DNA of 42,927 nucleotides, taken from the sequence record LR595868.1. The stretch is one strand, 5' to 3'. The translations under genes were made by a program, and so were the position numbers. Within the stretch, counting starts at the first letter, position 1. Each line of letters begins with the position of its first letter. This DNA is from Escherichia virus mEp460_4F5. The notes under the pieces are model-generated. The model did no database searches and was not told the origin of the DNA. It was given only the letters and a program-made list of their open reading frames with translations. Positions 18,673 through 40,744 of the stretch are shown here, piece after piece.

Positions 18673-20733
18673 ATGGCAGTACAGATTTCAGGCGTGCTGA
18701 AAGACGGTGCAGGAAAACCGATACAGAACTGCACCATTCAGCTCAAAGCAAAACGTAACAGCACCACGGTTGTGGTGAACACGGTGGCCTCAGAAAATCC
18801 GGATGAAGCCGGACGTTACAGCATGGATGTCGAGTATGGCCAGTACAGCGTTATCCTGCTGGTTGAAGGTTTTCCGCCTTCACATGCCGGGACCATCACC
18901 GTGTATGAGGATTCTAAGCCGGGGACGCTGAATGATTTTCTGGGCGCTGCAACAGAAGATGATGTTCGTCCGGAGGCACTGTATCGTTTTGAAAAGATGG
19001 TGGAAGAGGTGGCACGCAACGCTGAAGCCGCCTCTCAGAGCGCAGCGGCAGCAAAGAAATCAGAAACAGCAGCGGCATCGTCCAGGAACGCGGCGAAAAC
19101 ATCAGAGACGAATGCAGGTAACAGCGCGAAAGCGGCAGCTTCTTCAAAAACAGCCGCACAAAACGCAGCAACAGCGGCAGAACGTTCAGAGACAAATGCC
19201 CGTGCGTCAGAAGAAGCCTCCGCAGACAGTGAAGAGGCTTCCCGCCGTAATGCAGAGTCAGCCGCTGAAAATGCCGGAGTCGCCACCACAAAAGCGCGGG
19301 AGGCTGCAGCAGACGCAACAAAGGCCGGGCAGAAAAAGGATGAGGCTCTGTCGGCAGCGACACGAGCTGAAAAGGCGGCAGACCGCGCAGAAGCCGCAGC
19401 GGAAGTGACTGCAGAGCCCTATGCGAATATAGTGCCGCCGCTGCCTGATGTGTGGATACCGTTTAACGATTCACTGGATATGATTGCGGGTTTTTCTCCG
19501 GGCTATAAAAAAATAGCTATTGGTGACGATGTGGTTCAGGTCGCCAGTGATAAACAGGTTAATTTCAGTCGCGCATCAACGGCAACATATATCAACAAAT
19601 CTGGCGAACTGAAAACGGCGGAAATTAATGAGCCGCGATTTGAGTGTGATGGCCTGCTTATTGAGGGACAAAGAACGAACTACATGCTCAATTCGGAAAG
19701 TCCAGCCAGCTGGGGGAAGTCATCAAACATGGATGTGCCCGAAACCGGGACGGATAGTTTTGGTTTTACTTATGGAAAGTTTGTCTGCAACGATTCTCTG
19801 GTTGGGCAAACTTCGGCTATTAATATGGCATCAATTGCTGCAACAAAGTCAGTTGATGTCTCAGGCGATAACAAGTACGTGACAACCTCATGCCGTTTTA
19901 AAACAGAACGACAGGTAAGGTTACGTATACGGTTTGATAAGTATGATGGTAGTGCAACAACTTTTCTTGGCGATGCGTACATTGATACGCAAACGCTTGA
20001 AATTAATATGACAGGTGGTGCTGCCGGCAGAATTACGGCACGAGTCAGGAAGGATAAGACCACGGGCTGGATTTTTGCAGAGGCAACGATTCAGGCAATT
20101 GATGGTGAGTTAAAAATAGGCTCTCAGATACAGTATTCTCCTGAGCAGGGTGGGGCAACAGTATCTGGTGACTATATTTATCTTGCCACCCCACAAGTAG
20201 AGAATGGGCCGTGTGTATCATCATTTATTATTTCAGGAGGCAGCGCAACGACAAGAGCCAGTGATTTGGTTAGTATCCCCACCAGAAATAATCTTTATAA
20301 GTTACCATTTACTTTTTTACTTGAGATTCATAAAAACTGGGATATTGCACCAAACGCCGCACCCCGCGTGTGGGATATAGCAGCAGCCAATACCGGGCAA
20401 TCAGCAATTGCAGCAATCAACAGAGGTAGTGGTAAGTTATATATGAGTCTGTCAAACCCTTCAGGCTCGTATGTTAATAGCGCAGCGACAGATGTATTTA
20501 CAGAGAAAACCACATTTGGATGTATTGCAAAAGCTGATGGTCACTTTCATGTGGTGACAAATGGTAAAGCGGTTAATGAAGTTTATTGTGAATATAATGG
20601 CGTGACCGCTGATAAAAATATCCGATTTGGAGGGCAGACGAATACTGGAGAACGACATCTGTTTGGCCATATTCGCAATTTCCGCATATGGCATAAAGAA
20701 TTAAATGACAGGCAATTAAAAGAGGTCGTATGA
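18673..20733 (+). CDS. stf: Side tail fibre protein (Stf-like N-terminus, Ala/Ser-rich repeat shaft, unrecognised C-terminal domain)
   Basis: N-terminal roughly 120 aa match the lambda Stf N-terminus (MAVQISGVLKDG ... VEGFPPSHAGTITVYEDS); followed by an A/S/E-rich low-complexity shaft and a roughly 300-aa C-terminal region unlike lambda Stf; GGAG 5 nt upstream of the ATG at 18673. Confidence 0.8.
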   Translation: MAVQISGVLKDGAGKPIQNCTIQLKAKRNSTTVVVNTVASENPDEAGRYSMDVEYGQYSVILLVEGFPPSHAGTITVYEDSKPGTLNDFLGAATEDDVRPEALYRFEKMVEEVARNAEAASQSAAAAKKSETAAASSRNAAKTSETNAGNSAKAAASSKTAAQNAATAAERSETNARASEEASADSEEASRRNAESAAENAGVATTKAREAAADATKAGQKKDEALSAATRAEKAADRAEAAAEVTAEPYANIVPPLPDVWIPFNDSLDMIAGFSPGYKKIAIGDDVVQVASDKQVNFSRASTATYINKSGELKTAEINEPRFECDGLLIEGQRTNYMLNSESPASWGKSSNMDVPETGTDSFGFTYGKFVCNDSLVGQTSAINMASIAATKSVDVSGDNKYVTTSCRFKTERQVRLRIRFDKYDGSATTFLGDAYIDTQTLEINMTGGAAGRITARVRKDKTTGWIFAEATIQAIDGELKIGSQIQYSPEQGGATVSGDYIYLATPQVENGPCVSSFIISGGSATTRASDLVSIPTRNNLYKLPFTFLLEIHKNWDIAPNAAPRVWDIAAANTGQSAIAAINRGSGKLYMSLSNPSGSYVNSAATDVFTEKTTFGCIAKADGHFHVVTNGKAVNEVYCEYNGVTADKNIRFGGQTNTGERHLFGHIRNFRIWHKELNDRQLKEVV

Positions 20734-21425: not shown

Positions 21426-21674
21426 TTAGTGAACAAACCACTCGTCAGCAGACTCCCAGGTATCTTTCAGAGTTTCCTGAACAAAAGTTTTAGCTGAATC
21501 TTTATCGGCGGTGCGCGTAACAGAAAGGCCATCGTTGCTGGTGGCTTTTACGATCACCTCTACATCGTCATAACGTTTACTGATGCGTCGGGTTAATTCT
21601 TCCTTTAACGCATCCACAGCACCGGTTGGCATTTTAGTCATTTTTTCTTTGGCTATACAGATTTCAATACGCAT
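21426..21674 (-). CDS. dinI: DinI-like SOS-response protein
   Basis: 82 aa; matches DinI (MRIE ... IAK ... GA.DAL..EL.RRI ... ETWESAD.WFV); GAGGGA ribosome-binding site upstream on the minus strand. Confidence 0.85.
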
Positions 21675-21687
21675 AAAAGTCCCTCTA

Positions 21688-21733
21688 TACTGTGTTTGTA
21701 TACAGTATTATTTTTAACTGTATGGATAAACAG
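21688..21733. promoter_or_regulatory. Two tandem LexA (SOS) boxes in the dinI-like promoter
   Basis: TACTGTGTTTGTATACAGTA (about 21688-21707) and AACTGTATGGATAAACAGTG (about 21716-21735); both fit the LexA core CTG-N10-CAG and sit in the 61-bp interval between the dinI start and the int stop. Confidence 0.75.
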
Positions 21734-21735
21734 TG

Positions 21736-30644: not shown

Positions 30645-31271
30645 CTAGAGTTCGTATTGAACTCCTTTGACTACACCAATGATGAGGCAATTACCATTGA
30701 TCGGGATGTTGGGGTACCGGGGATTTAATGGCACTAAAAACTTTTGAGGGCCATCGATAACTAATTTTTTTACTGTGGCTTCGTTTGTTCCATCAAGTCT
30801 AGCGATGACTATTTTTCCATGCCGGGGTTCTGCATCAGGATCTACAATCACTGTTGCGCCTTCTGGTATTGTTGGGAGGCCGTTAGGGTTAGTCATGGAG
30901 TCGCCTTTAACCTCCAATGCAAATGAGTTATCACCAATCTTTAATGATGTATCTACCCACTTGTCTACTTCACTAAACACTTCTGCTGTCCTGCACTCAG
31001 TAAACTGCCCAGCCTGAACCCACGAGATTACAGGAACTCTGCGCATGTTTGTGACGAGTTTGCCTTCAAACTCCGCACCATAAAGAATGTAATCTATTGA
31101 CGTATTGAAGAACTTCGCTAATTTTGAAAGTGCTTCCCCACCAGGGACATTGATGTCTTTCTCCCAGTACCCCACAGCAACGTCACTTACTCCACAAAAT
31201 TTACCCAATTCTTTCTGGGACGTTCTGGTAACTCTTCTCAGAGCTTTTATACGCTGACCAACCGTTTCCAT
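30645..31271 (-). CDS. cI: CI-type repressor (HTH_XRE plus S24 LexA-like peptidase domain)
   Basis: 208 aa; N-terminal XRE-type HTH (GQRIKALR ... SQKELGKFCGVSDVAVGYWE); C-terminal S24 motifs (Ala-Gly cleavage site in WVQAGQF, GDSM serine, KIVIARL lysine); divergent from cro. Confidence 0.85.
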   Translation of the reverse strand: METVGQRIKALRRVTRTSQKELGKFCGVSDVAVGYWEKDINVPGGEALSKLAKFFNTSIDYILYGAEFEGKLVTNMRRVPVISWVQAGQFTECRTAEVFSEVDKWVDTSLKIGDNSFALEVKGDSMTNPNGLPTIPEGATVIVDPDAEPRHGKIVIARLDGTNEATVKKLVIDGPQKFLVPLNPRYPNIPINGNCLIIGVVKGVQYEL

Positions 31272-31368
31272 AGGAGCACCATTTCTTTAATTACTAAGTA
31301 ATCTTAGTTTTTATTGACCTAAGATAGATTGATAATTAACATCTAATAAAACTTAGTTTGGAGAGCAT
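31272..31368. promoter_or_regulatory. OR / pR-pRM divergent promoter-operator region
   Basis: Palindromic operator-like sites TTACTAAGTAA (about 31291-31301) and AAACTTAGTTT (about 31349-31359) sharing half-sites with OL; -35-like TTGACC at about 31314-31319. Confidence 0.55.
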
Positions 31369-31569
31369 ATGACGACTGACGATATCGAAAGCTACTTCGG
31401 CAGCATTGAGAAAGTTGCTGCTTTTTTCGGCATAACAACTGAAGCCGTTTATCAGTGGCGAAACCGTCCTGGCCAGTTAATTCCAAAAGGACGTGCAGCA
31501 GAGGCTGCATATAGAACTTGCGGACGGTTGCCATTTAAACCTGAGCTTTATGAAAAATCTAATGGATAA
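31369..31569 (+). CDS. cro: Cro-like repressor
   Basis: 66 aa; HTH (AAFFGITTEAVYQWRNR); divergent from cI across the operator region. Confidence 0.7.
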   Translation: MTTDDIESYFGSIEKVAAFFGITTEAVYQWRNRPGQLIPKGRAAEAAYRTCGRLPFKPELYEKSNG

Positions 31570-32191
31570 ATCGATTTACAGAAACCACAGATATGAGGGC
31601 TTAAACGTGGGTAAAGAACCTGAATGGAAAGTTGATAAGCAACCAGCATGGCTGGTGGCAGCAATACGAAGAACGATTGCTGATTTACCTCATGGCTATG
31701 AGGAAGCAGCAGAAATTCTTGGTTTGTATAAATCTGATGATATCACCCCAGCAAAAGATCAATTGCATAACAGACTGCGTAGCGGTGGGGATCAAATTTT
31801 TCCACTTGAGTGGGCCATGGTTTTACAGGATGCCAGTGGTACCAGGCATGTAACGGATGCAATAGCCCGTCGTAGTAATGGGGTGTTTGTGCCGCTGGTG
31901 GTCATTGATGACATTGACAATGGTGACATTAATCAGCGGCTGATGGAGTCAATAGAATGGATTGGCAAGCATTCCCAGTACTTACGCAAGGCAACTGCTG
32001 ATGGAGTTATTGACCAAGCTGAGCGTGAGCAAATCGAAGAGAACAGCTACCAAGTAATGGCGAAGTGGCAGGAGCATTTAACACTGTTATTTCGTGTTTT
32101 TTGTGCGCCGGAAAAGAGTAACGCCCGCGAGTGTGCAGCTCCGGGCGTCGTGGCGTCGATTGCTTCTGGTTGTGGAGAAACTAACGCATGA
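31550..32191 (+). CDS. Early regulatory protein in the cII position (function unassigned)
   Basis: About 213 aa from the ATG at 31550 (alternatives 31493 and 31562); overlaps the cro stop; not recognisably lambda cII. Confidence 0.4.
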
Positions 32192-32526
32192 ACAGTTTAA
32201 CAACACACTACCGTCGCTCGCAACTGATTGCGCTTCCTGTACCGGGTGGAAAAGCGAAGGTGGAGTATTGCTATGCAGTGAATGTACCAGGTGACAGGGA
32301 AATTGTAACCCACAGCTTTGCAGAGTGGGCTGTGGGGGATTTCAACCGGCAGAAGGAGACAGTCCTTTGCGACAAGTTAACCGCTGGTTCAAAGATCACT
32401 ACGGAGTGCCCGTCAGAGTCATTCGTTGGGAGCCTGAAACACAACGGGTTATCTACCTCCGTGAAGGCTATGAACATGAGTGCTTCAGCCCGCTCGAACA
32501 GTTTCGTCGTAAATTCAGGGAAATAG
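32188..32526 (+). CDS. Hypothetical protein (N-terminal half protein-like; possibly frameshifted into the next ORF)
   Basis: 112-aa ORF; the first roughly 65 residues look protein-like, the remainder is Ser-rich and low-complexity. Confidence 0.3.
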
Positions 32527-32579
32527 AGGTCGGTCATGAGCCTGTTAATGACATCCCAGCCCATTGTGATAAATCGTGA
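32325..32579 (+). CDS. Hypothetical small protein (C-terminal roughly 65 residues protein-like)
   Basis: 84-aa ORF in another frame, overlapping the previous ORF; begins with GTG in the track. Confidence 0.35.
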
Positions 32580-33528
32580 TCTTGCATGCCGTATTGGTCT
32601 GAATGAGGCAATTGTGTTGCAGCAGCTTCATTACTGGCTGAATGAAACGAATTCCGGCACTGAGCATGGCGGAATTCGCTGGGTTTATAACACGACAGAA
32701 CAGTGGCTGGAGCAGTTTCCGTTCTGGTCAGAGTCCACTCTGAAACGCACATTTGCAAGCCTGAAATCACTTGGGGTTTTGCGTCGCGAGCAACTCAATA
32801 AATCGAAGCGTGACATGACCAACTTCTACACGATCAACTATGAAAGTGAGCTTTTAGAAGAGGTCAAAGTGAACGAATCCATCAGGTCAAAATGCACTTC
32901 TCCATCGGGTCAAAGTGACCTGATGGATGGGCGCAAAATGACACGATCCATTGGTTCAAAACGACACGCTGTCATCGGGTCAAAATGGCCCAATGATCTT
33001 ACAGAGAATACAACAGAGATTACTACAGAGAATAAAACCTCTTCTCGTCCGGACGCTTCGCAACCGGACACGCAGATGGCTGAACAGGATTTTTTAACTC
33101 GCCATCCTGATGCGGTTGTATTCAGCCCTAAAAAGCGCCAGTGGGGAACGCAGGATGATTTGACCTGCGCACAGTGGCTCTGGAAAAAAATCATCGCTCT
33201 GTACGAGCAGGCCGCCGAATGTGACGGCGAAGTGGTACGTCCTAAAGAACCGAACTGGACAGCCTGGGCAAACGAAATTCGCCTGATGTGTGTACAGGAT
33301 GGGCGTACTCACAAACAAATCTGCGAGATGTACTGCCGCGTCAGCCGCGATCCGTTCTGGTGCCGTAACGTGCTCAGCCCGTCGAAGCTGCGGGAAAAAT
33401 GGGATGAGCTTTCCCTGCGCTTATCGCCGTCCGTCAGCACGTACACCGAAAAACGCGAAGACCCGTACTTCAAATCCAGTTACGACAACGTGGACTACAG
33501 CCAGATCCCGGCAGGATTCAGGGGGTGA
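32536..33528 (+). CDS. Replication initiator / replisome organiser (lambda O-like arrangement with internal origin)
   Basis: 330 aa; N-terminal winged-helix-like region; origin iterons lie inside the gene (next feature), as in lambda O. Confidence 0.7.
   Translation: MSLLMTSQPIVINRDLACRIGLNEAIVLQQLHYWLNETNSGTEHGGIRWVYNTTEQWLEQFPFWSESTLKRTFASLKSLGVLRREQLNKSKRDMTNFYTINYESELLEEVKVNESIRSKCTSPSGQSDLMDGRKMTRSIGSKRHAVIGSKWPNDLTENTTEITTENKTSSRPDASQPDTQMAEQDFLTRHPDAVVFSPKKRQWGTQDDLTCAQWLWKKIIALYEQAAECDGEVVRPKEPNWTAWANEIRLMCVQDGRTHKQICEMYCRVSRDPFWCRNVLSPSKLREKWDELSLRLSPSVSTYTEKREDPYFKSSYDNVDYSQIPAGFRG
32881..32988. repeat. Origin iterons (four copies of about 15 bp, CATCGGGTCAAAATG-like)
   Basis: CATCAGGTCAAAATG (about 32881), CATCGGGTCAAAGTG (32904), CATTGGTTCAAAACG (32950), CATCGGGTCAAAATG (32974); spacing about 23/46/24 bp; followed by an AT-rich stretch with repeated ACAGAGAATA. 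Confidence 0.65.
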
Positions 33529-33530
33529 TC

Positions 33531-34019
33531 ATGAGTCTTTTGAATGAAGTTCAGAAATTCATTGAAGCCCATCCGGGGTGTACTTCCGGAGACATTGCGG
33601 ATGCTTTTGCAGGTTACTCACGGCAGCGCGTTCTGCAGTCAGCAAGCAAGTTACGTCAGAGTGGGCGTGTGGCTCACCGTTGTGAAGGAGATACACGCAG
33701 ACATTTCCCGCGCCTGACTGAGAGAGCGCAGGAGCCGGAACCACAATCTGTTCGTGAAACCAGACCTGTGCGCAATTTCTATGTCGGCACTAACGACCCC
33801 CGGGTGATTTTGTGCCTGACCCGCCAGGCTGAAGAACTGGAGTCCAGGGGCTTATTCCGTCGAGCTGCAACGGTGTGGATGGCGGCATTCCGTGAAAGCC
33901 ACTCCCAGCCAGAACGAAACAATTTTCTGGCGCATCGTGAGCGGTGCTTACGGAAAAGCAGCAAGCGCGCTGCATCGGGTGAAGAGTGGTATCTGTCAGG
34001 GAATTACGTGGGGGCTTAA
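33531..34019 (+). CDS. Hypothetical regulator (PerC-like C-terminal region)
   Basis: 163 aa from the ATG at 33531 (the track starts at the GTG at 33525); C-terminal AEELESRGLFRRAATVW resembles PerC-family proteins as recalled. Confidence 0.35.
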   Translation: MSLLNEVQKFIEAHPGCTSGDIADAFAGYSRQRVLQSASKLRQSGRVAHRCEGDTRRHFPRLTERAQEPEPQSVRETRPVRNFYVGTNDPRVILCLTRQAEELESRGLFRRAATVWMAAFRESHSQPERNNFLAHRERCLRKSSKRAASGEEWYLSGNYVGA

Positions 34020-34672
34020 TGAGTAATAAATATTGCCAGGCGCTGGTGGAGCTGCGGAACAAACCAGCCCATGAACTGAAGGAAGTGGGCGATCAGTGGC
34101 GCACGCCGGACAACATTTTCTGGGGAATTAACACCCTGTTTGGCCCGTTTGTTCTGGATCTGTTCACTGATGGTGATAACGCCAAATGTGCCGCTTATTA
34201 CACTGCGGAAGACAACGCGCTGGCGCATGACTGGTCTGAACGTCTTGCGGAGCTTAAAGGTGCTGCCTTTGGTAATCCCCCGTACAGCCGCGCCAGTCAG
34301 CATGAGGGGCAATACATCACCGGCATGCGTTACATCATGAAACATGCCAGTGCCATGCGTGATAAAGGTGGGCGCTATGTTTTCCTGATCAAAGCTGCCA
34401 CCAGCGAAGTTTGGTGGCCGGAAGATGCAGACCATATTGCTTTTATTCGCGGGCGTATTGGTTTTGAACTGCCAGCCTGGTTTATCCCGAAGGACGAGAA
34501 GCAGGTGCCGACAGGCGCTTTCTTCGCTGGTGCTATTGCTGTTTTCGACAAGACCTGGAAGGGACCGGCAATCAGCTACATCGGGCGCGATGAACTTGAG
34601 GCATGTGGTGAGGCCTTTCTGGCGCAGGTTCGCCAGCAGGCGGAAAAACTGGTCAGGGAGATGGCGGCATGA
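34019..34672 (+). CDS. Phage Dam-type N6-adenine DNA methyltransferase
   Basis: 217 aa from the ATG at 34019 (TAATG overlap); NPPY catalytic motif (FGNPPYS). Confidence 0.7.
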   Translation: MSNKYCQALVELRNKPAHELKEVGDQWRTPDNIFWGINTLFGPFVLDLFTDGDNAKCAAYYTAEDNALAHDWSERLAELKGAAFGNPPYSRASQHEGQYITGMRYIMKHASAMRDKGGRYVFLIKAATSEVWWPEDADHIAFIRGRIGFELPAWFIPKDEKQVPTGAFFAGAIAVFDKTWKGPAISYIGRDELEACGEAFLAQVRQQAEKLVREMAA

Positions 34673-34995
34673 CGACATTAACTCAATGCCAGCAGCAGGT
34701 GCTGGATATGCTGATTTCTTACCAGAAAGAACGTGGCTTCCCGCCAACCAATCAGGAGGTGGCAACCATGCTGGGATACCGTTCAGTGAATGCAGCGGTG
34801 GAGCATCTTCGCGCACTGGAGAAAAAAGGCGTCATCACGATAAAGCGTGGCGTGGCCCGGGGGATAACGCTTCATACCACGGTGAAGGACGACGACAGCG
34901 AGGCGGTCGGGATTATCCGCTCACTGCTTGCCGGTGAGGAAAACGCAAGGCTGCGTGCAACCCACTGGTTACATGAGAGGGGCCTGAAAGCATGA
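34669..34995 (+). CDS. LexA N-terminal DNA-binding-domain homologue lacking the peptidase domain
   Basis: 108 aa; matches the LexA winged-HTH domain (L...QQ.V.D.I......GFPPT..E.A..LG.RS.NAA.EHL.AL..KGVI.I..G.ARGI.L); no S24 Ser/Lys catalytic domain. Confidence 0.65.
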   Translation: MTTLTQCQQQVLDMLISYQKERGFPPTNQEVATMLGYRSVNAAVEHLRALEKKGVITIKRGVARGITLHTTVKDDDSEAVGIIRSLLAGEENARLRATHWLHERGLKA

Positions 34996-35381
34996 AGCTG
35001 ATCCTGCCTTTTCCGCCCAGCGTGAACACGTACTGGCGACACCCCAACAAAGGGGCGTTTGCAGGTAAGAGCCTGATAAGCGCGGCGGGGCGCAAATTCC
35101 AGAGCGCGGCGTGTGCAGCAATAGTTGAGCAGTTACGTCGTCTGCCAAAACCAACGTCGGCACCTGCTTCAGTGGAGATCGTGTTGTTTCCTCCGGATAA
35201 CCGGATCCGCGATCTGGACAACTATAACAAGGCGCTGTTTGACGCCCTGACCCACGCGGGTGTGTGGGAAGACGACAGTCAGGTGAAAAGAATGCTGGTG
35301 GAGTGGGGACCGGTTATCCCGGAAGGGAAGGTCGAGATCACTATCAGTAAGTACGAGAAAACGGCGGGTGCAGCCGCCTGA
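34992..35381 (+). CDS. rusA: RusA-family Holliday junction resolvase
   Basis: 129 aa; RusA-like (LPFPPSVN.YWRH ... RDLDNYNKALFDALT ... GVW.DD.QV). Confidence 0.85.
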   Translation: MKLILPFPPSVNTYWRHPNKGAFAGKSLISAAGRKFQSAACAAIVEQLRRLPKPTSAPASVEIVLFPPDNRIRDLDNYNKALFDALTHAGVWEDDSQVKRMLVEWGPVIPEGKVEITISKYEKTAGAAA

Positions 35382-35400
35382 TTAAGAGGAGAAACGAAGT

Positions 35401-36243
35401 ATGAATAATCTGATGGTCATTGATGGTATTGAAGTTCGTCGTGATGCTTATGGACGTTACAGCCTGAACGATCTGCATCGCGCAGCAGTAGCATCTGGTG
35501 CAAATGCCAGAACCAAGGAGCCGGGAAAGTTTCTTTCCAGCCAACAGATTACTGAGCTGGTTCAGGAATTGATCGATACCCAAAATCTGGGTGTCGGTTC
35601 ATTCAATGAAACTACCCAAAATTTGGGTAGTAAACCTGTCAGTAAAATAGAAGGGCGGAATGGCGGAACATATGTCTGTAAGGAACTGGTGTATGCCTAT
35701 GCAATGTGGATCAGCCCGTCATTCCATCTGAAGGTGATCCGCACTTTCGACATGGTAACCAGCGCACCGGAAAAATTATCCGGGCAGGCTGCTGACAAGA
35801 TGCAGGCTGGCGTGATTCTGCTGGACTTTATGCGCCGGGAGTTAAATCTGTCTAACTCATCAGTGCTTGGTGCCTGTCAGAAACTTCAGGAGGCTGTTGG
35901 CTTACCGAATCTGGCACCGCGCTATGCCATTGATGCTCCTGCTGATGCACACGATGGCTCAAGTCGCCCGACACTGTCACTGAGTGCACTGCTGAAACAG
36001 TATGGTATACGCCTGACGGCTAATCAGGCATATCACCAGATGGCGAAGCTGGGGATCGTTGAACAACGTGAACGATACAGCCGCACTGCGATTAACAACA
36101 TCAAAAAATTCTGGTCGCTGACGGCGAAAGGCTGCATGTTCGGCAAAAACATCACCAGTCCCGCAAATCCGCGCGAGACGCAGCCGCATTTCTTCGAATC
36201 CCGATTCCCTGAGCTGTTAAAGCTGCTCGATACCGTTCATTGA
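35401..36243 (+). CDS. KilA-N domain protein (antirepressor-like)
   Basis: 280 aa; N-terminal KilA-N-like region (YSLNDLHRAA ... GTYVCKELVYAYAMWISP.FHLKVIRTFD). Confidence 0.65.
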   Translation: MNNLMVIDGIEVRRDAYGRYSLNDLHRAAVASGANARTKEPGKFLSSQQITELVQELIDTQNLGVGSFNETTQNLGSKPVSKIEGRNGGTYVCKELVYAYAMWISPSFHLKVIRTFDMVTSAPEKLSGQAADKMQAGVILLDFMRRELNLSNSSVLGACQKLQEAVGLPNLAPRYAIDAPADAHDGSSRPTLSLSALLKQYGIRLTANQAYHQMAKLGIVEQRERYSRTAINNIKKFWSLTAKGCMFGKNITSPANPRETQPHFFESRFPELLKLLDTVH

Positions 36244-36244
36244 G

Positions 36245-37240
36245 GTGACCGTGAGAGCACTACTGACCCCTGAAATTGCCCCGCGTATGGGGATCGTATT
36301 GTTCAGGCCCGGTTCAGAGCTGATGCCCCTGTTTATGCAGGGGCGTGTCCTGCTGGAGCCTGAGCCGGAACGTTATTCATCTTTCGCCAGTGGTGCCGTT
36401 CCGGCGGCATCACAACCGCTGGCGGATGATCCTGCCGTTCGGGCCGTGTTCCGCAATGAGGCAGTGATCCGTCGTGCTGGTGGCGTGGAATGTCTTGAAA
36501 GCTGGTTACTTCGTGAAAAAGGCTGCCAGTGGCCTCATTCCGACTGGCACAGCGAGAACATGACAACAATGCGACACGCTCCGGGCGCAATCCGTCTGTG
36601 CTGGCACTGCGATAACCAGCTGCGCGATCAGTTCACGGAACGGCTGGAATCAATGGCAACGGATAACTGTACCCGCTGGGTGTTGTCTGTTGTGCGTCGG
36701 GATCTCGGTTTTGATGACAGTCACGTTGTGACAATGCCGGAACTGTGCTGGTGGCTGATTCGTAATGACCTGGCGGATGCCTTACCGGAAAGTGCAGCCC
36801 GTAAGGCACTGAGATTACCGAAGCCTGTTGTGCCGTCTGTCACCCGGGAAAGTGACCTTGTGCCTTCGGTTCCCGCCACCAGCATCATCCAGAATAAAGC
36901 GAAAAAGGTGCTGGCGCTGAAAGTGGATCCGGAGTCGCCGGAGTCTTTTATGTTACGCCCAAAACGTCGCCGCTGGGTTAATGAAAAGTACACGCGCTGG
37001 GTTAAGACACAGCCGTGTGCATGTTGTGGAAAACCTGCTGATGATCCCCACCACCTGATAGGTCACGGTCAGGGTGGAATGGCTACAAAAGCGCATGACC
37101 TCTTTGTGTTGCCTTTGTGCAGAAAGCATCACGACGAGCTGCATGCGGATACCGTGGCATTTGAAGAGAAGTATGGCTCCCAGCTGGAGCTGATATTTCG
37201 TTTTATCGATCGTGCACTGGCAATTGGCGTGCTGGCCTGA
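36245..37240 (+). CDS. DUF968-family protein (nin-region protein with Cys/His cluster)
   Basis: 331 aa; C-terminal CACCGK ... HH ... H motif; start is either the GTG at 36245 or the GTG at 36251 (GAGG 5 nt upstream of the latter). Confidence 0.55.
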   Translation: MTVRALLTPEIAPRMGIVLFRPGSELMPLFMQGRVLLEPEPERYSSFASGAVPAASQPLADDPAVRAVFRNEAVIRRAGGVECLESWLLREKGCQWPHSDWHSENMTTMRHAPGAIRLCWHCDNQLRDQFTERLESMATDNCTRWVLSVVRRDLGFDDSHVVTMPELCWWLIRNDLADALPESAARKALRLPKPVVPSVTRESDLVPSVPATSIIQNKAKKVLALKVDPESPESFMLRPKRRRWVNEKYTRWVKTQPCACCGKPADDPHHLIGHGQGGMATKAHDLFVLPLCRKHHDELHADTVAFEEKYGSQLELIFRFIDRALAIGVLA

Positions 37241-37257
37241 TTTTGTGGAGAAAGTTG

Positions 37258-37599
37258 ATGCGTGATATGTATGAAGTATTGGACCGCTGGGGTGCATGGG
37301 CTGCAGCAGATAACAGTGGTGTGGACTGGCAGCCTGTTGCTGCAGGGTTTAAAGGTTTACTACCTCATGGAAAGAAAACACGCCAACAATGCGATGATGA
37401 TGAAGGAATCATGATTGACAGCTGTGTTGCGCGATTGCGGAAATATAAGCCCGAAGAGTATGAGTTGGTTATTGCTCATTTTGTTATCGGCATCTCACTA
37501 AGAACTATTGCAAAGAAGCAGAAGTGTTCTGATGGGACAATAAGAAAAGAGTTGCAAACAGCTCTTGGTTTTCTGGATGGTGTGCTTTCAATGTTGTAA
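37258..37599 (+). CDS. Q: Late-gene antiterminator Q (QuuD / Q82-like family)
   Basis: 113 aa from the ATG at 37258 (GGAG 7 nt upstream); closely resembles E. coli QuuD as recalled (MRD ... VL.RWGAWAA ... W...AAGFKGL ... DDD ... SDG.I.K.LQ). Confidence 0.8.
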   Translation: MRDMYEVLDRWGAWAAADNSGVDWQPVAAGFKGLLPHGKKTRQQCDDDEGIMIDSCVARLRKYKPEEYELVIAHFVIGISLRTIAKKQKCSDGTIRKELQTALGFLDGVLSML

Positions 37600-37604
37600 T
37601 ATTA

Positions 37605-37627
37605 GGGGGAATTACCCCCCTTTTTTT
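37605..37627 (+). terminator. Strong intrinsic terminator immediately after Q
   Basis: GGGGG-AATTA-CCCCCC hairpin followed by TTTTTTT; the stop codon of the convergent minus-strand gene lies in its loop. Confidence 0.7.
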
Positions 37628-38160
37628 CTCTGTTGCTTTAATAAAATTTTAATATTTTGTCTGATTATGATGAGGCAATGTAATAAAAGAAATACCGTTA
37701 GTATTGCAAGCCATACGCAAAATAAGCATGCATATAAATTAGTTGAAAGTCCAATAGTGAATTGTGCAATTGCTGTTGTGATAGAACATAATATTGATGT
37801 ATTAATAAATGAGGATAAATTGTCTAAAGGTTTATAAAGTACACTATCATTGATTTTGTCAATAGGTATACCAGTGGCAATGCTATAAATTTCCTTATAT
37901 TCCTGAGTTGCAAAAACCTTATCGCGTAAATTTATTATGACAAAGGTATGCAGGCTCAATAAAAATGAGCCCACGGAAATAAAACCGGAGAAGAGATAGC
38001 CTCGTAAGTTTTTATGATAAAAATCAAAAAAGTTAACACTTACTTTAGGTGTGTTTCTGTACAATAGGTAAAGTGCAAGCAATGCCAGGATCGAGAATGC
38101 AAGCAGTGTAAGGTACTGATACCTCAATCTTTTATTTATTAGCCATTCATATAAAGGCAT
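37612..38160 (-). CDS. Four-helix integral membrane protein, second gene of the antisense AT-rich cassette (candidate effector)
   Basis: 182 aa; four hydrophobic segments of about 20 aa; basic C-terminus (KQQRKKGG); overlaps the upstream gene by 14 nt; AT-rich. Confidence 0.6.
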   Translation of the reverse strand: MPLYEWLINKRLRYQYLTLLAFSILALLALYLLYRNTPKVSVNFFDFYHKNLRGYLFSGFISVGSFLLSLHTFVIINLRDKVFATQEYKEIYSIATGIPIDKINDSVLYKPLDNLSSFINTSILCSITTAIAQFTIGLSTNLYACLFCVWLAILTVFLLLHCLIIIRQNIKILLKQQRKKGG

Positions 38161-39073
38161 TTTTATTCGTCCCGTTCAGCATTTCTTCTTTTATCATATC
38201 AAAAACAGGGTTTGTTGTATAATTATCGTTTGTCAATCCATTGACTTTATCGGCAATTATATCGAAATCGTATGTTTCAAAAAAAACAGGGCAGTTCATA
38301 AAATCAATGGTTTTTTCTATTCCTGCATGGTTTACTGCAATAACCTGTGCTTTAGCAACTCCACTCATAGAATTATAAATATTTGAAAGATTCTGAGATA
38401 GTTGTTGCACTTTTGTTCTGTCGCTAGAATTAAAATTCATATCTATTGTGGTGGTGTTAACAAATTGTTCAAGCGCAGTCATTGGTCCACCTTTAAAATC
38501 TATATAATTAAATTTAAAGCTTGTGCTTTTAATCTCTTTGAATTGACATAAAACACTCTGAATGTTGTTTTTATTTGTCATAAGGCTGAAAGTCAGTCTT
38601 TCTTTGTATTTTTTATTTATTGCAGTTACTTCTTTTTGTTTTGGTTTATCACCAAGTTTTTTTATTTCTTCTTTATTTTGATTTCTGATAAATTCATTAC
38701 TTATTGTTTCTAAATGAGAAAAGAGAGTGTTCAGACTGCATGAACCGTGGTGATACATATAGAGACCAGAAAGATTAGATTTTTTAATTAAGAAAAAGTT
38801 GAAATTAGCAAGTTTGTCACTTCCTTGAAGATCTTCAATTTTAAGCTGGAATTTACCATCAACAAATTGCGACTTACAGTTCTTTTTTTGGTTTCTGAAT
38901 GTGACAACTAATCCATAATAGAAATCATTCACATCCGAAATGAGAATTTTACGAGTATAGTCTGTGCGACTGTGTTCTCTGTTTGATGCGTTGATAAAAG
39001 CATTCATTACGTCAACGGTATTAATATTTTTGTTATTGTTATTTATTGTAAATCCTATGCTTCTAACTTTCAT
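38147..39073 (-). CDS. Hypothetical soluble protein, first gene of the antisense AT-rich cassette (candidate sensor)
   Basis: 308 aa; Asn/Lys-rich; no catalytic motif recognised by eye (no Walker A); AT-rich codon usage unlike the phage core. Confidence 0.6.
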   Translation of the reverse strand: MKVRSIGFTINNNNKNINTVDVMNAFINASNREHSRTDYTRKILISDVNDFYYGLVVTFRNQKKNCKSQFVDGKFQLKIEDLQGSDKLANFNFFLIKKSNLSGLYMYHHGSCSLNTLFSHLETISNEFIRNQNKEEIKKLGDKPKQKEVTAINKKYKERLTFSLMTNKNNIQSVLCQFKEIKSTSFKFNYIDFKGGPMTALEQFVNTTTIDMNFNSSDRTKVQQLSQNLSNIYNSMSGVAKAQVIAVNHAGIEKTIDFMNCPVFFETYDFDIIADKVNGLTNDNYTTNPVFDMIKEEMLNGTNKNAFI

Positions 39074-39691: not shown

Positions 39692-40744
39692 ATGAAAAAT
39701 ACTGTAAAAATAAACAGTGTTGATTTAATCAACGCTGATTGCCTGCATTTTATTCAGTCCCTGCCTGATGATTCCATTGACCTGATTGTTACCGATCCGC
39801 CTTACTTCAAGGTGAAACCTAACGGTTGGGACAATCAGTGGAAAGGGGACGAAAATTACCTTAAGTGGCTGGACCACTGTCTGGCCCAGTTCTGGCGGGT
39901 GTTAAAACCTGCCGGAAGCCTTTACCTGTTCTGTGGGCATCGCCTGGCATCTGATATTGAGATCATGATGCGTGAACGTTTCAACGTGCTTAACCATATC
40001 ATCTGGGCGAAGCCGTCCGGACGTTGGAATGGGTGTAATAAAGAAAGTCTGCGCGCATATTTTCCTGCCACAGAGCGCGTTCTGTTTGCTGAACATTACC
40101 AGGGGCCATATCGCGGCAAAAGTGACGGCTATGCGGCAAAAGAAAGGGAACTCAAACAGCACATAATGGCACCGCTGATATCGTATTTCAGGGATGCTCG
40201 TGCCGAACTGGGTATAACGGCAAAACAAATTGCCGAAGCCACAGGTAAGAAAAATATGGTTTCCCACTGGTTTGGTGCCAGTCAGTGGCAGTTGCCGAAT
40301 GAGGCTGACTATCGGAAGTTACAGGCACTGTTTTCCCGTATAGCGGCAGAGAAGTTTCAGGAACAACAACTGGAACAACCACACCACCAGCTGGTGGCAT
40401 CTTATGATTCACTGAATCGCAAATATTCTGAATTGCTGGATGAGTTTAAATCTCTCCGGCGCTATTTCTCCGTATCAGTCTCCGTGCCTTATACCGATGT
40501 CTGGACGCATAAGCCCGTTCAGTTCTACCCGGGTAAACATCCGTGCGAGAAACCGGCGGATATGCTCCGGCAAATAATCAATGCCAGTAGTCGACCTGGT
40601 GATCTGGTTGCTGATTTCTTTATGGGATCCGGTTCCACAATAAAAGCAGCAATGGCGCTGGGGCGTCGGGCGTTAGGTGTTGAACTTGAGTCAGAGCGGT
40701 TTAATCAGACGGTGAAAGAGGTAAGTGAACTGGTGGGGAAATAA
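39692..40744 (+). CDS. Orphan DNA methyltransferase (N6-adenine/N4-cytosine, DPPY motif)
   Basis: 350 aa; catalytic motif IVTDPPYF near the N-terminus and an AdoMet-binding F.GSGST motif near the C-terminus; no adjacent restriction endonuclease. Confidence 0.8.
   Translation: MKNTVKINSVDLINADCLHFIQSLPDDSIDLIVTDPPYFKVKPNGWDNQWKGDENYLKWLDHCLAQFWRVLKPAGSLYLFCGHRLASDIEIMMRERFNVLNHIIWAKPSGRWNGCNKESLRAYFPATERVLFAEHYQGPYRGKSDGYAAKERELKQHIMAPLISYFRDARAELGITAKQIAEATGKKNMVSHWFGASQWQLPNEADYRKLQALFSRIAAEKFQEQQLEQPHHQLVASYDSLNRKYSELLDEFKSLRRYFSVSVSVPYTDVWTHKPVQFYPGKHPCEKPADMLRQIINASSRPGDLVADFFMGSGSTIKAAMALGRRALGVELESERFNQTVKEVSELVGK

Follow-up and report, generated by a model that had tools for sequence, protein, structure and literature searches.

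The 42,927-nucleotide (nt) record of Escherichia virus mEp460_4F5 (LR595868.1), which we analyzed in full and call the window, comprises the entire genome of a lambdoid phage. It runs from the terminase and structural genes through int, the immunity region, the early genes, and Q to the lysis genes, and it is close to mEp460, SfV, and cdtI and to the PhiR phages of E. coli. We studied a small gene in its early region, whose product resembles the DNA-binding part of LexA. This LexA-like gene, its parts, its immediate neighbors, and the repressor gene of the phage are as follows:

34669..34995, + strand: LexA-like gene, an open reading frame from ATG to TGA that encodes 108 amino acids (PHROG 362; Pfam LexA_DNA_bind)
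34669..34872, + strand: LexA-type winged helix-turn-helix, residues 1-68 (from an AlphaFold2 model, Foldseek, and the alignment to LexA)
34786..34824, + strand: recognition helix VNAAVEHLRALEK, residues 40-52, with Asn41, Ala42, and Glu45 kept and Glu44 replaced by Val
34891..34977, + strand: two-helix tail, residues 75-103, with helices at 75-87 and 93-103 (from the AlphaFold2 model, conservation, and selection)
33986..34672, + strand: Dam methyltransferase gene, the upstream neighbor (Pfam Dam, E = 1.1e-45)
34992..35381, + strand: rusA, for a Holliday-junction resolvase, the downstream neighbor (Pfam RusA, E = 6.1e-15)
30645..31271, − strand: CI-type repressor gene of the phage (Pfam Peptidase_S24, E = 1.6e-27, and HTH_3, E = 3.5e-9)

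The LexA-like gene overlaps both of its neighbors. Its ATG overlaps the stop codon of the Dam gene (ATGA at 34669-34672), its stop codon overlaps the start of rusA (ATGA at 34992-34995), and a Shine-Dalgarno-like GGGAG lies upstream of its ATG. We predict that it is translationally coupled to the Dam gene and to rusA. In a simple scan, the sole promoter-like site to the right of the CI gene was at 31314-31342 (a candidate for pR). From that site to 35382, the scan gave nothing promoter-like on the + strand, and it gave no convincing terminator on this strand until 37604, just past Q. Because of these results across 31314-37604, the LexA-like gene seems to have no promoter of its own and to be read within the rightward early operon. 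The predicted order of this operon is the candidate pR, dam, the LexA-like gene, rusA, and on to Q, with the terminator at 37604. The LexA-like gene sits in it 3.4 kilobases (kb) downstream of the CI gene. We rejected the idea that the LexA-like protein is the immunity repressor, as that role is filled by the HTH_3 and Peptidase_S24 protein.

A LexA-type DNA-binding domain without the protease

The N-terminal part of the protein is a homolog of LexA's DNA-binding domain. Residues 1-65 match all of Pfam's LexA_DNA_bind (PF01726, positions 1-65 of 65) with E = 2.9e-19 and 69 bits, against a cut-off of 23.7 bits. A phmmer search of PDB sequences found the DNA-binding domain of E. coli LexA (1lea) at E = 6.9e-16. 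In a gap-free alignment, 35 of 69 residues (51%) are identical to E. coli LexA, and the recognition-helix stretch RSVNAAVEHLRALEKKGVI is aligned with RSPNAAEEHLKALARKGVI of LexA. An earlier reading of this DNA, made from its letters alone (the sequence-only reading), had aligned the product by eye with LexA's N-terminal winged helix-turn-helix (HTH) and had picked out the pattern S.NAA.EHL.AL..KGVI. The alignment bears this out and reproduces the pattern exactly.

The predicted structure is also that of LexA. We built an AlphaFold2 model from 24 family sequences (mean predicted local distance difference test score, or pLDDT, of 79.8). It has helices at residues 6-22, 28-35, and 40-52 and wing strands at 56-59 and 65-68. 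According to Foldseek, the model superimposes on DNA-bound LexA (3jso) with a root-mean-square deviation of 1.3 Å over 68 residues (50% identity). All 10 of the Foldseek matches with E ≤ 0.001 are LexA structures. Aligning the protein to LexA and modeling its structure were the checks that the sequence-only reading had proposed, and both came out LexA-like.

That reading had also allowed that the similarity might be limited to a generic HTH. We ruled this out: the LexA match is at least 16 orders of magnitude better than that of any other HTH family, and the next-best Pfam matches, HTH_Crp_2 and Rrf2, have E ≥ 0.0017 and are under their cut-offs. Matches to replication protein O and DnaD in PHROG and Pfam are weak (E of 0.006-0.15) and reflect the shared winged-helix fold only. 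Similarly, we take a weak CARF-HTH match in PADLOC (E = 3.6e-4) to be fold noise.

We then examined the DNA-contacting residues. In E. coli LexA these are Ser39, Asn41, Ala42, Glu44, and Glu45 (PMC3091678, PMC13416735; the role of Glu44 is taken from secondary citations and not from the LexA-DNA structure paper). Four of the five (Ser39, Asn41, Ala42, and Glu45) are kept in the phage protein. More broadly, residues 39-43 and 45-47 are nearly identical between the two proteins, with S39, N41, A42, A43, E45, H46, and L47 common to both. The RGI motif of the wing is kept as well, and in the phage protein two extra basic wing residues, K59 and R60, take the place of V and S in LexA. From its sequence, we conclude that the phage protein almost certainly binds DNA in the manner of LexA.

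What the protein lacks is the rest of LexA. The catalytic residues of LexA (Ser119 and Lys156) are in its C-terminal S24 peptidase domain, and LexA dimerizes through the same domain. The LexA-like protein stops at residue 108, short of both residues, and Pfam finds no Peptidase_S24 match in it. It scores 70.9 bits against the lexA equivalog TIGR00498, which is under the cut-off of 110.95, and it matches model positions 1-91 of 203 only. In other words, the similarity to LexA runs through the linker as far as the cleavage-site region. The C-terminal domain of LexA has no tblastn match across the window at E ≤ 10. Since the window holds no such similarity and rusA begins at the stop codon, we rejected a frameshifted or split full-length lexA. 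The sequence-only reading was right that the product ends before the Ser/Lys domain. It had also proposed that such a protein could not be cleaved after DNA damage, and this is what we would predict too: with the autoprotease absent, there should be no self-cleavage of the kind seen in LexA.

We also considered whether the protein retains a cleavage site or could be a substrate for cleavage in trans. A88-G89 of the phage protein aligns with the cleavage site of LexA (Ala84-Gly85), and in the AlphaFold2 model these residues are at the end of a predicted helix. Relatives have AN, VG, SG, or TR instead (as in LLANEE, LLVGEE, and LLSGGD). Because the site is not conserved in the family and lies at a helix end, cleavage at A88-G89 is unlikely, and we rejected both ideas.

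The two-helix tail and purifying selection

In place of the S24/dimerization domain and a conserved Ala-Gly, which distinguish E. coli LexA from the phage protein, the phage protein has a tail of two helices. (Besides the tail, it differs from LexA in Val44, K59, and R60, and in being encoded by a phage, in an early lytic operon.) This tail of 35 residues is no part of LexA. Its helices are modeled with pLDDT of about 90, and the linker at 71-75 has low confidence. The tail has a regular hydrophobic pattern (I82/I83/L86/L87 and A93/A97/W100/L101). We found no relative of it in Pfam, in PDB sequences, or with Foldseek, which aligns the DNA-binding domain only; a search of PDB with the tail alone gave noise only (E of about 1).

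The tail is a conserved part of the family. Scanning viral contigs with the family alignment gave near-identical copies only, and the diverse relatives that we describe below came from separate scans with distant members. The tail is kept in relatives with only 40-50% identity to the phage protein (P0123, P0126, P0127, P0130, P0139, P0159, P0169, and P0201). PHROG 362 includes it: residues 1-107 of the phage protein match profile positions 1-105 of 106 (E = 1.7e-59), and the homologs from phage mEp390 and from the Klebsiella-phage locus L188 match this profile over their full length. The sequence-only reading overlooked the tail, which is the only candidate replacement for the dimerization domain of LexA. 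Because LexA dimerizes through the domain that is missing here, the tail is the obvious candidate for a dimerization or partner-binding module.

The DNA-binding domain and the tail are both under purifying selection. Among 37 alleles from the close family, the ratio of nonsynonymous to synonymous polymorphism (pN/pS) is 0.05 overall (DNA-binding domain, 0.02; tail, 0.13). Among 72 alleles from a second subfamily, P0130, the corresponding ratio for substitutions (dN/dS) is 0.21 for the DNA-binding domain and 0.21 for the tail. The length of the gene is intact in 82 of 82 loci.

These results bear on whether the gene might be a decaying and functionless remnant of a captured lexA. A truncated copy would be expected to resemble LexA through the linker and up to the cleavage-site region, as this protein does. 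But a remnant would not be expected to show such low ratios in two subfamilies or to be intact at every locus; nor would its tail, at 40% identity, be conserved, or the gene be found in 2,233 of 5,426 complete E. coli genomes. We give this explanation almost no credence, and the selection analysis excludes it.

LexA DNA-binding domains without the protease also occur in other arrangements. In phage Kp4866-6 (L002, 2300-2776), a LexA domain that is 66% identical is fused to a different C-terminal domain of about 90 residues (PHROG 29443/24920), and the fused gene precedes rusA. Evidently, judging by these sequences, more than one C-terminal module has become joined to the LexA DNA-binding domain. 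In addition, many database proteins of 140-350 amino acids (P0131, P0132, P0149, P0152, P0155, P0160, and P0164) match our query in two separate stretches. They apparently carry LexA DNA-binding domains in tandem within a single chain, which would be another protease-free architecture.

SOS boxes and gene neighborhoods

If the protein binds DNA as LexA does, then SOS boxes are its candidate targets. The window contains three strong ones:

21426..21674, − strand: dinI-like gene, an open reading frame of 82 amino acids (Pfam DinI, E = 1.1e-19)
21688-21707: SOS box TACTGTGTTTGTATACAGTA, upstream of the dinI-like gene; a candidate target, and certainly a site of the host-LexA type
21716-21735: SOS box AACTGTATGGATAAACAGTG, upstream of the dinI-like gene; also a candidate target, and certainly a site of the host-LexA type
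39692..40744: N6/N4 DNA methylase gene of the late region, a short way upstream of the lysis genes
39700-39719: third SOS box TACTGTAAAAATAAACAGTG, within codons 3-9 of the methylase gene; a candidate target

The motif CTGT-N8-ACAG was observed three times in the window, versus 0.42 expected. In a scan with a matrix of E. coli SOS boxes, these three stand out at 21-24 bits, with the runner-up in the window at 8.7 bits. Inverted repeats of CTGT/ACAG are over-represented in the window at N8 only, with no enrichment at non-canonical spacings. There are also three ACAG-N8-CTGT sites in the window, which are GC-rich and lie within coding sequence. The sequence-only reading had reported two consensus LexA boxes in front of a dinI-like gene, and those are the first two boxes above. 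It missed the third.

The two boxes with dinI make up a module that is present in 86 phage records, and in the VT1-Sakai record a promoter and a LexA site are annotated at these boxes. It is a known, standard module under the control of the host's LexA. In both Klebsiella phage Kp4866-6 (TACTGTAAAAATATCCAGCA) and Citrobacter phage phiNP, the third box is still a good SOS box, even though the amino acids encoded there differ. The leader of about 60 nt upstream of it is almost invariant and is better conserved than the coding sequence. This pattern suggests that the methylase gene is under LexA control. A LexA-domain protein is encoded in 27 of the 28 phage records that have the same methylase start (the exception is phiNP). 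Linkage could explain this co-occurrence, as just 5 kb separates the two loci.

A tie between the family and the SOS circuit is supported by its relatives in Klebsiella phages such as Kp4865-4 and ST846-OXA48phi9.1 (the P0139/L188 subfamily). Of 34 such loci, 28 have an SOS box of 16-30 bits at a fixed position, between 500 and 680 nt upstream of the sequence for the DNA-binding domain; in 18 of these 34 loci, the first gene of the same operon is a DinI gene. For example, the unit in L188 (2209-3327) starts with an intrinsic terminator (2209-2232), a −35 element (TTGACC), and an SOS box (2320-2339) that covers the −10 element. The genes that follow encode a DinI-family protein (Pfam E = 8.1e-22), a 101-amino-acid protein of PHROG 1813, and the LexA-like protein. 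The same unit is found in L181-L202 and L209, and its layout of terminator, sigma-70 promoter, and box is conserved across diverged flanks. As read from these signals, the LexA-like gene of the Klebsiella phages sits in a self-contained SOS-inducible operon with another damper of the SOS response.

A third tail-bearing subfamily, P0130, includes phage mEp390, whose LexA-like protein is 47% identical to that of the window. The genome of mEp390 has a single strong SOS box (20706-20725), which is upstream of a DinI-like gene beside att. Thus, SOS-boxed dinI genes are present in phages of all three tail-bearing subfamilies, the window and mEp390 among them. In mEp390 the DinI-like gene adjoins a gene annotated as HumD-like, a homolog of UmuD (L211, 20396-21308), so that there is a small SOS-related cluster beside att.

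We noticed additional near-consensus SOS boxes at two places in other phages with the same LexA-like gene. One is between rusA and a gene with a KilA-N domain (L029, 4789-4808; 3 loci). The other is inside a CI-type S24 repressor gene (L024, 1043-1062; 8 loci).

The other recurring neighbor is rusA. It lies immediately downstream of the LexA-like gene in 84 of 84 close-family loci, 80 of 80 P0130 loci, 2 of 2 P0126 loci, and 8 of 8 loci of the Kp4866 type (with the different C-terminal domain), as well as in mEp390, and in most of these loci the stop and start codons overlap. (Coordinates of rusA in relatives include 5318-5707 in L004, 2773-3171 in L002, and 3593-3979 in L176.) In loci of the L176 type, the next gene encodes a RusA that is too divergent to be found by tblastn (Pfam RusA, E = 1.4e-11).

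This raises the possibility that the LexA-like protein is an accessory factor for recombination or repair. The LexA-type domain would be the tether to DNA, and the tail would bind RusA or a different early protein. Besides the adjacency, which extends to the divergent RusA, the ATGA overlap and the purifying selection on a tail with no known fold partner would fit with this idea. However, 22 Klebsiella-phage loci have the LexA-like gene without any RusA downstream. Also, inheritance as linked genes of a single mosaic module could account for the adjacency: RusA proteins are 69-73% identical where the LexA-like proteins are 47-66% identical. RusA functions without a LexA-like partner in other prophages, such as DLP12, and we know of no precedent for a LexA domain that acts as a tether; both points count against a RusA partner. 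Overall, we consider this role to be improbable.

Another gene that tends to stay nearby is at 33525-34019, two genes upstream of the LexA-like gene. It encodes a yfdN-like protein of 164 amino acids with a PerC transcriptional-activator domain (Pfam E = 7.4e-8). In most related loci, this gene remains next to dam and the LexA-like gene.

Possible functions of the LexA-like protein

How might the phage use this protein? A LexA-derived winged helix-turn-helix (residues 1-68) is joined by a short flexible linker to a family-specific helical hairpin (75-103) that replaces the S24/dimerization domain. The tail would bring two DNA-binding domains together, and the dimer would occupy SOS-box-like operators that contain CTGT. 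Without a cleavage domain, the dimer would remain bound after RecA* has destroyed the host's LexA. Repression of LexA-controlled promoters, and not activation, would then be re-imposed or retuned during lytic growth. The candidate targets would be the phage's dinI, the box in the methylase gene, and SOS genes of the host.

We tentatively favor this RecA-proof and tail-dimerized surrogate for LexA, acting at SOS-type operators, as a possible rather than a probable role. We do so because the recognition helix is so close to that of LexA, the tail is conserved, the predicted timing of expression fits, the Klebsiella-phage relatives are in an operon with an SOS box and DinI, and engineered fusions behave in this way. 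LexA(1-87), when fused to a heterologous dimerization domain, represses SOS operators in vivo, which is the basis of the LexA bacterial two-hybrid system. By analogy to such fusions and to the non-cleavable LexA(Ind-) mutants, the phage protein is predicted to be a repressor that resists RecA. (Those proteins are either artificial constructs or full-length LexA with a point mutation, whereas dimerization by the phage tail is only predicted.)

A more specific version of the surrogate seems doubtful to us. In this version, prophages would make the tail-dimerized protein on induction and would use it to turn the host's SOS regulon back off, along with SOS-controlled phage genes, while DNA damage persists. 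In the Klebsiella phages, the LexA-like protein and DinI would together form an "SOS-silencing" module directed at both RecA* activity and the occupancy of LexA operators. DinI inhibits the co-protease activity of RecA*. As the LexA-like protein would be, it is a small modulator of the SOS response in the same phages, where it is controlled by SOS boxes, and the two are co-operonic in the Klebsiella phages. It differs in that its fold is unrelated and its target is the RecA filament, not DNA.

Several observations weigh against a surrogate that binds SOS boxes. First, the fifth DNA contact of LexA, Glu44, is Val in the phage protein. At position 44, all of the aligned tail-bearing members have V, A, F, T, L, or Y and never an acidic residue; the LexA fragments in the same alignment retain NAAEEH. 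Even Glu45 is gone in some subfamilies, as in the L188 type (NAVALH) and Kp4866-6 (NAAATH). Because Glu44 is replaced across the family and Glu45 is lost in parts of it, the DNA specificity may have shifted.

Second, the dinI boxes of the window do not seem to be a specific partner of the LexA-like gene. At least 32 of the 60 listed records with the dinI module lack the LexA-like gene, including VT1-Sakai, Stx1a phages, and YYZ-2008. The sequence-only reading had combined these boxes with the LexA-like protein to propose that the phage may rewire SOS control of its own or the host's genes. Our results weaken a specific partnership with these boxes, as the module is widespread without the gene; the more general link to the SOS response is supported by the dinI and SOS-box operon of the Klebsiella phages.

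Third, 486 kb of sequence flanking the P0130 loci contains no SOS box. Fourth, dimerization is our guess for a tail that resembles nothing else in structure or sequence. Fifth, in a full-text literature search, we found no functional study of the family; the search turned up gp6 (discussed below) and genome catalogs only. Our confidence in the surrogate is limited because its specificity is only predicted, Glu44 is systematically replaced, and the sole characterized analog behaves differently.

That analog is gp6 from GIL01, a tectivirus of Bacillus. It is a truncated homolog of LexA, with 44% identity to the host's LexA, yet it binds a palindrome that is not LexA's (GaCACAn nTGTGaC). This site overlaps the −35 element of the late promoter P3, and gp6 activates P3 (PMC6182141). 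By analogy, a protein this similar to LexA could bind another site and activate, which also weighs against the surrogate. Both gp6 and the window's protein are LexA DNA-binding domains without the protease from temperate phages that are wired to the SOS response, and both are expressed early. On the other hand, gp6 has 66 amino acids, ends at the wing, and lacks the tail. Also, GIL01 has no CI and uses the host's LexA as its repressor, whereas the phage in the window has its own S24-type CI. BLASTP gave no alignment between gp6 and the window's protein at E ≤ 100, so we take them to be independent derivations from different host LexA lineages.

Could the window's protein be a diverged regulator like gp6? 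It would keep the LexA fold but would bind a phage-specific operator that is not an SOS box, and it would activate or repress a phage promoter to set the timing of early and late genes. Besides the precedent of gp6 at P3, this would account for the family-wide replacement of Glu44 and for the variation at positions 44 and 45 among subfamilies. Furthermore, a different dimerization module could alter the spacing of half-sites. But residues 39-43 and 45-47 of the recognition-helix region are nearly those of LexA, and we found no other enriched palindrome, with CTGT/ACAG repeats enriched at a spacing of 8 only. Nor is there a candidate operator in the vicinity of the gene, which lacks its own promoter. 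And the regulators already in this phage (CI, a CII-like protein, and Q) serve its cascade. We think that a role of this kind, although it is the main rival to the surrogate, is rather unlikely.

The answer matters because the gene is so common. At 95% protein identity or above, it is in 49 phage records, which include mEp460, SfV (orf42), SfII, SfIV, cdtI, and Stx2a, Stx2c, and Stx2k phages. About 41% of the complete E. coli genomes carry it, in as many as four copies per genome. If the surrogate binds SOS operators, then nearly half of sequenced E. coli have a second, uncleavable LexA-like repressor, as do several Stx2, cdt, and Shigella serotype-converting phages. This repressor would appear exactly as the host's LexA is destroyed. 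It could then shape SOS mutagenesis, persistence, the induction of co-resident prophages that depend on LexA-controlled antirepressors, and the expression of colicins and toxins, and possibly the output of Shiga toxin after antibiotic treatment. If the protein binds some other site instead, then it would be the second independent case, after gp6 of GIL01, of a phage that recast a host's LexA domain as a regulator.

The protein itself is already in the databases, and gp6 is a precedent for proteins of this kind, but the family is uncharacterized as well as very common. GenBank calls it "LexA DNA binding domain protein," and the Prokaryotic Genome Annotation Pipeline (PGAP) calls it "LexA family transcriptional regulator" (171 homologs have this name). 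"LexA-like protein" and "transcriptional repressor" are also in use. In KF030445.1, LR595862.1, AB285204.1, and MT225100.1, it is misnamed as "SOS-response repressor and protease LexA," "RecA-mediated autopeptidases," or "LexA repressor." Whichever role is correct, names that imply a protease are wrong for this 108-amino-acid protein. A survey of Shiga toxin (Stx) phages placed it, as pham 237 (pfam01726), among the regulators of lysis and lysogeny, without analysis (PMC8136144). The main points of our analysis are the conserved tail, the loss of Glu44 across the family, the invariant adjacency to rusA, the Klebsiella-phage operon of SOS box, dinI, and LexA-like gene, and the SOS box at the start of the methylase gene.

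Finally, we noticed two overlapping genes on the − strand between Q and the late region (37612-39073), which encode proteins of 182 and 308 amino acids. Their GC content is 0.31, compared with 0.50 for the window, and they have no match in Pfam or PADLOC. The smaller protein looks membrane-associated. The pair looks like a moron and is possibly an unrecognized defense or exclusion system.

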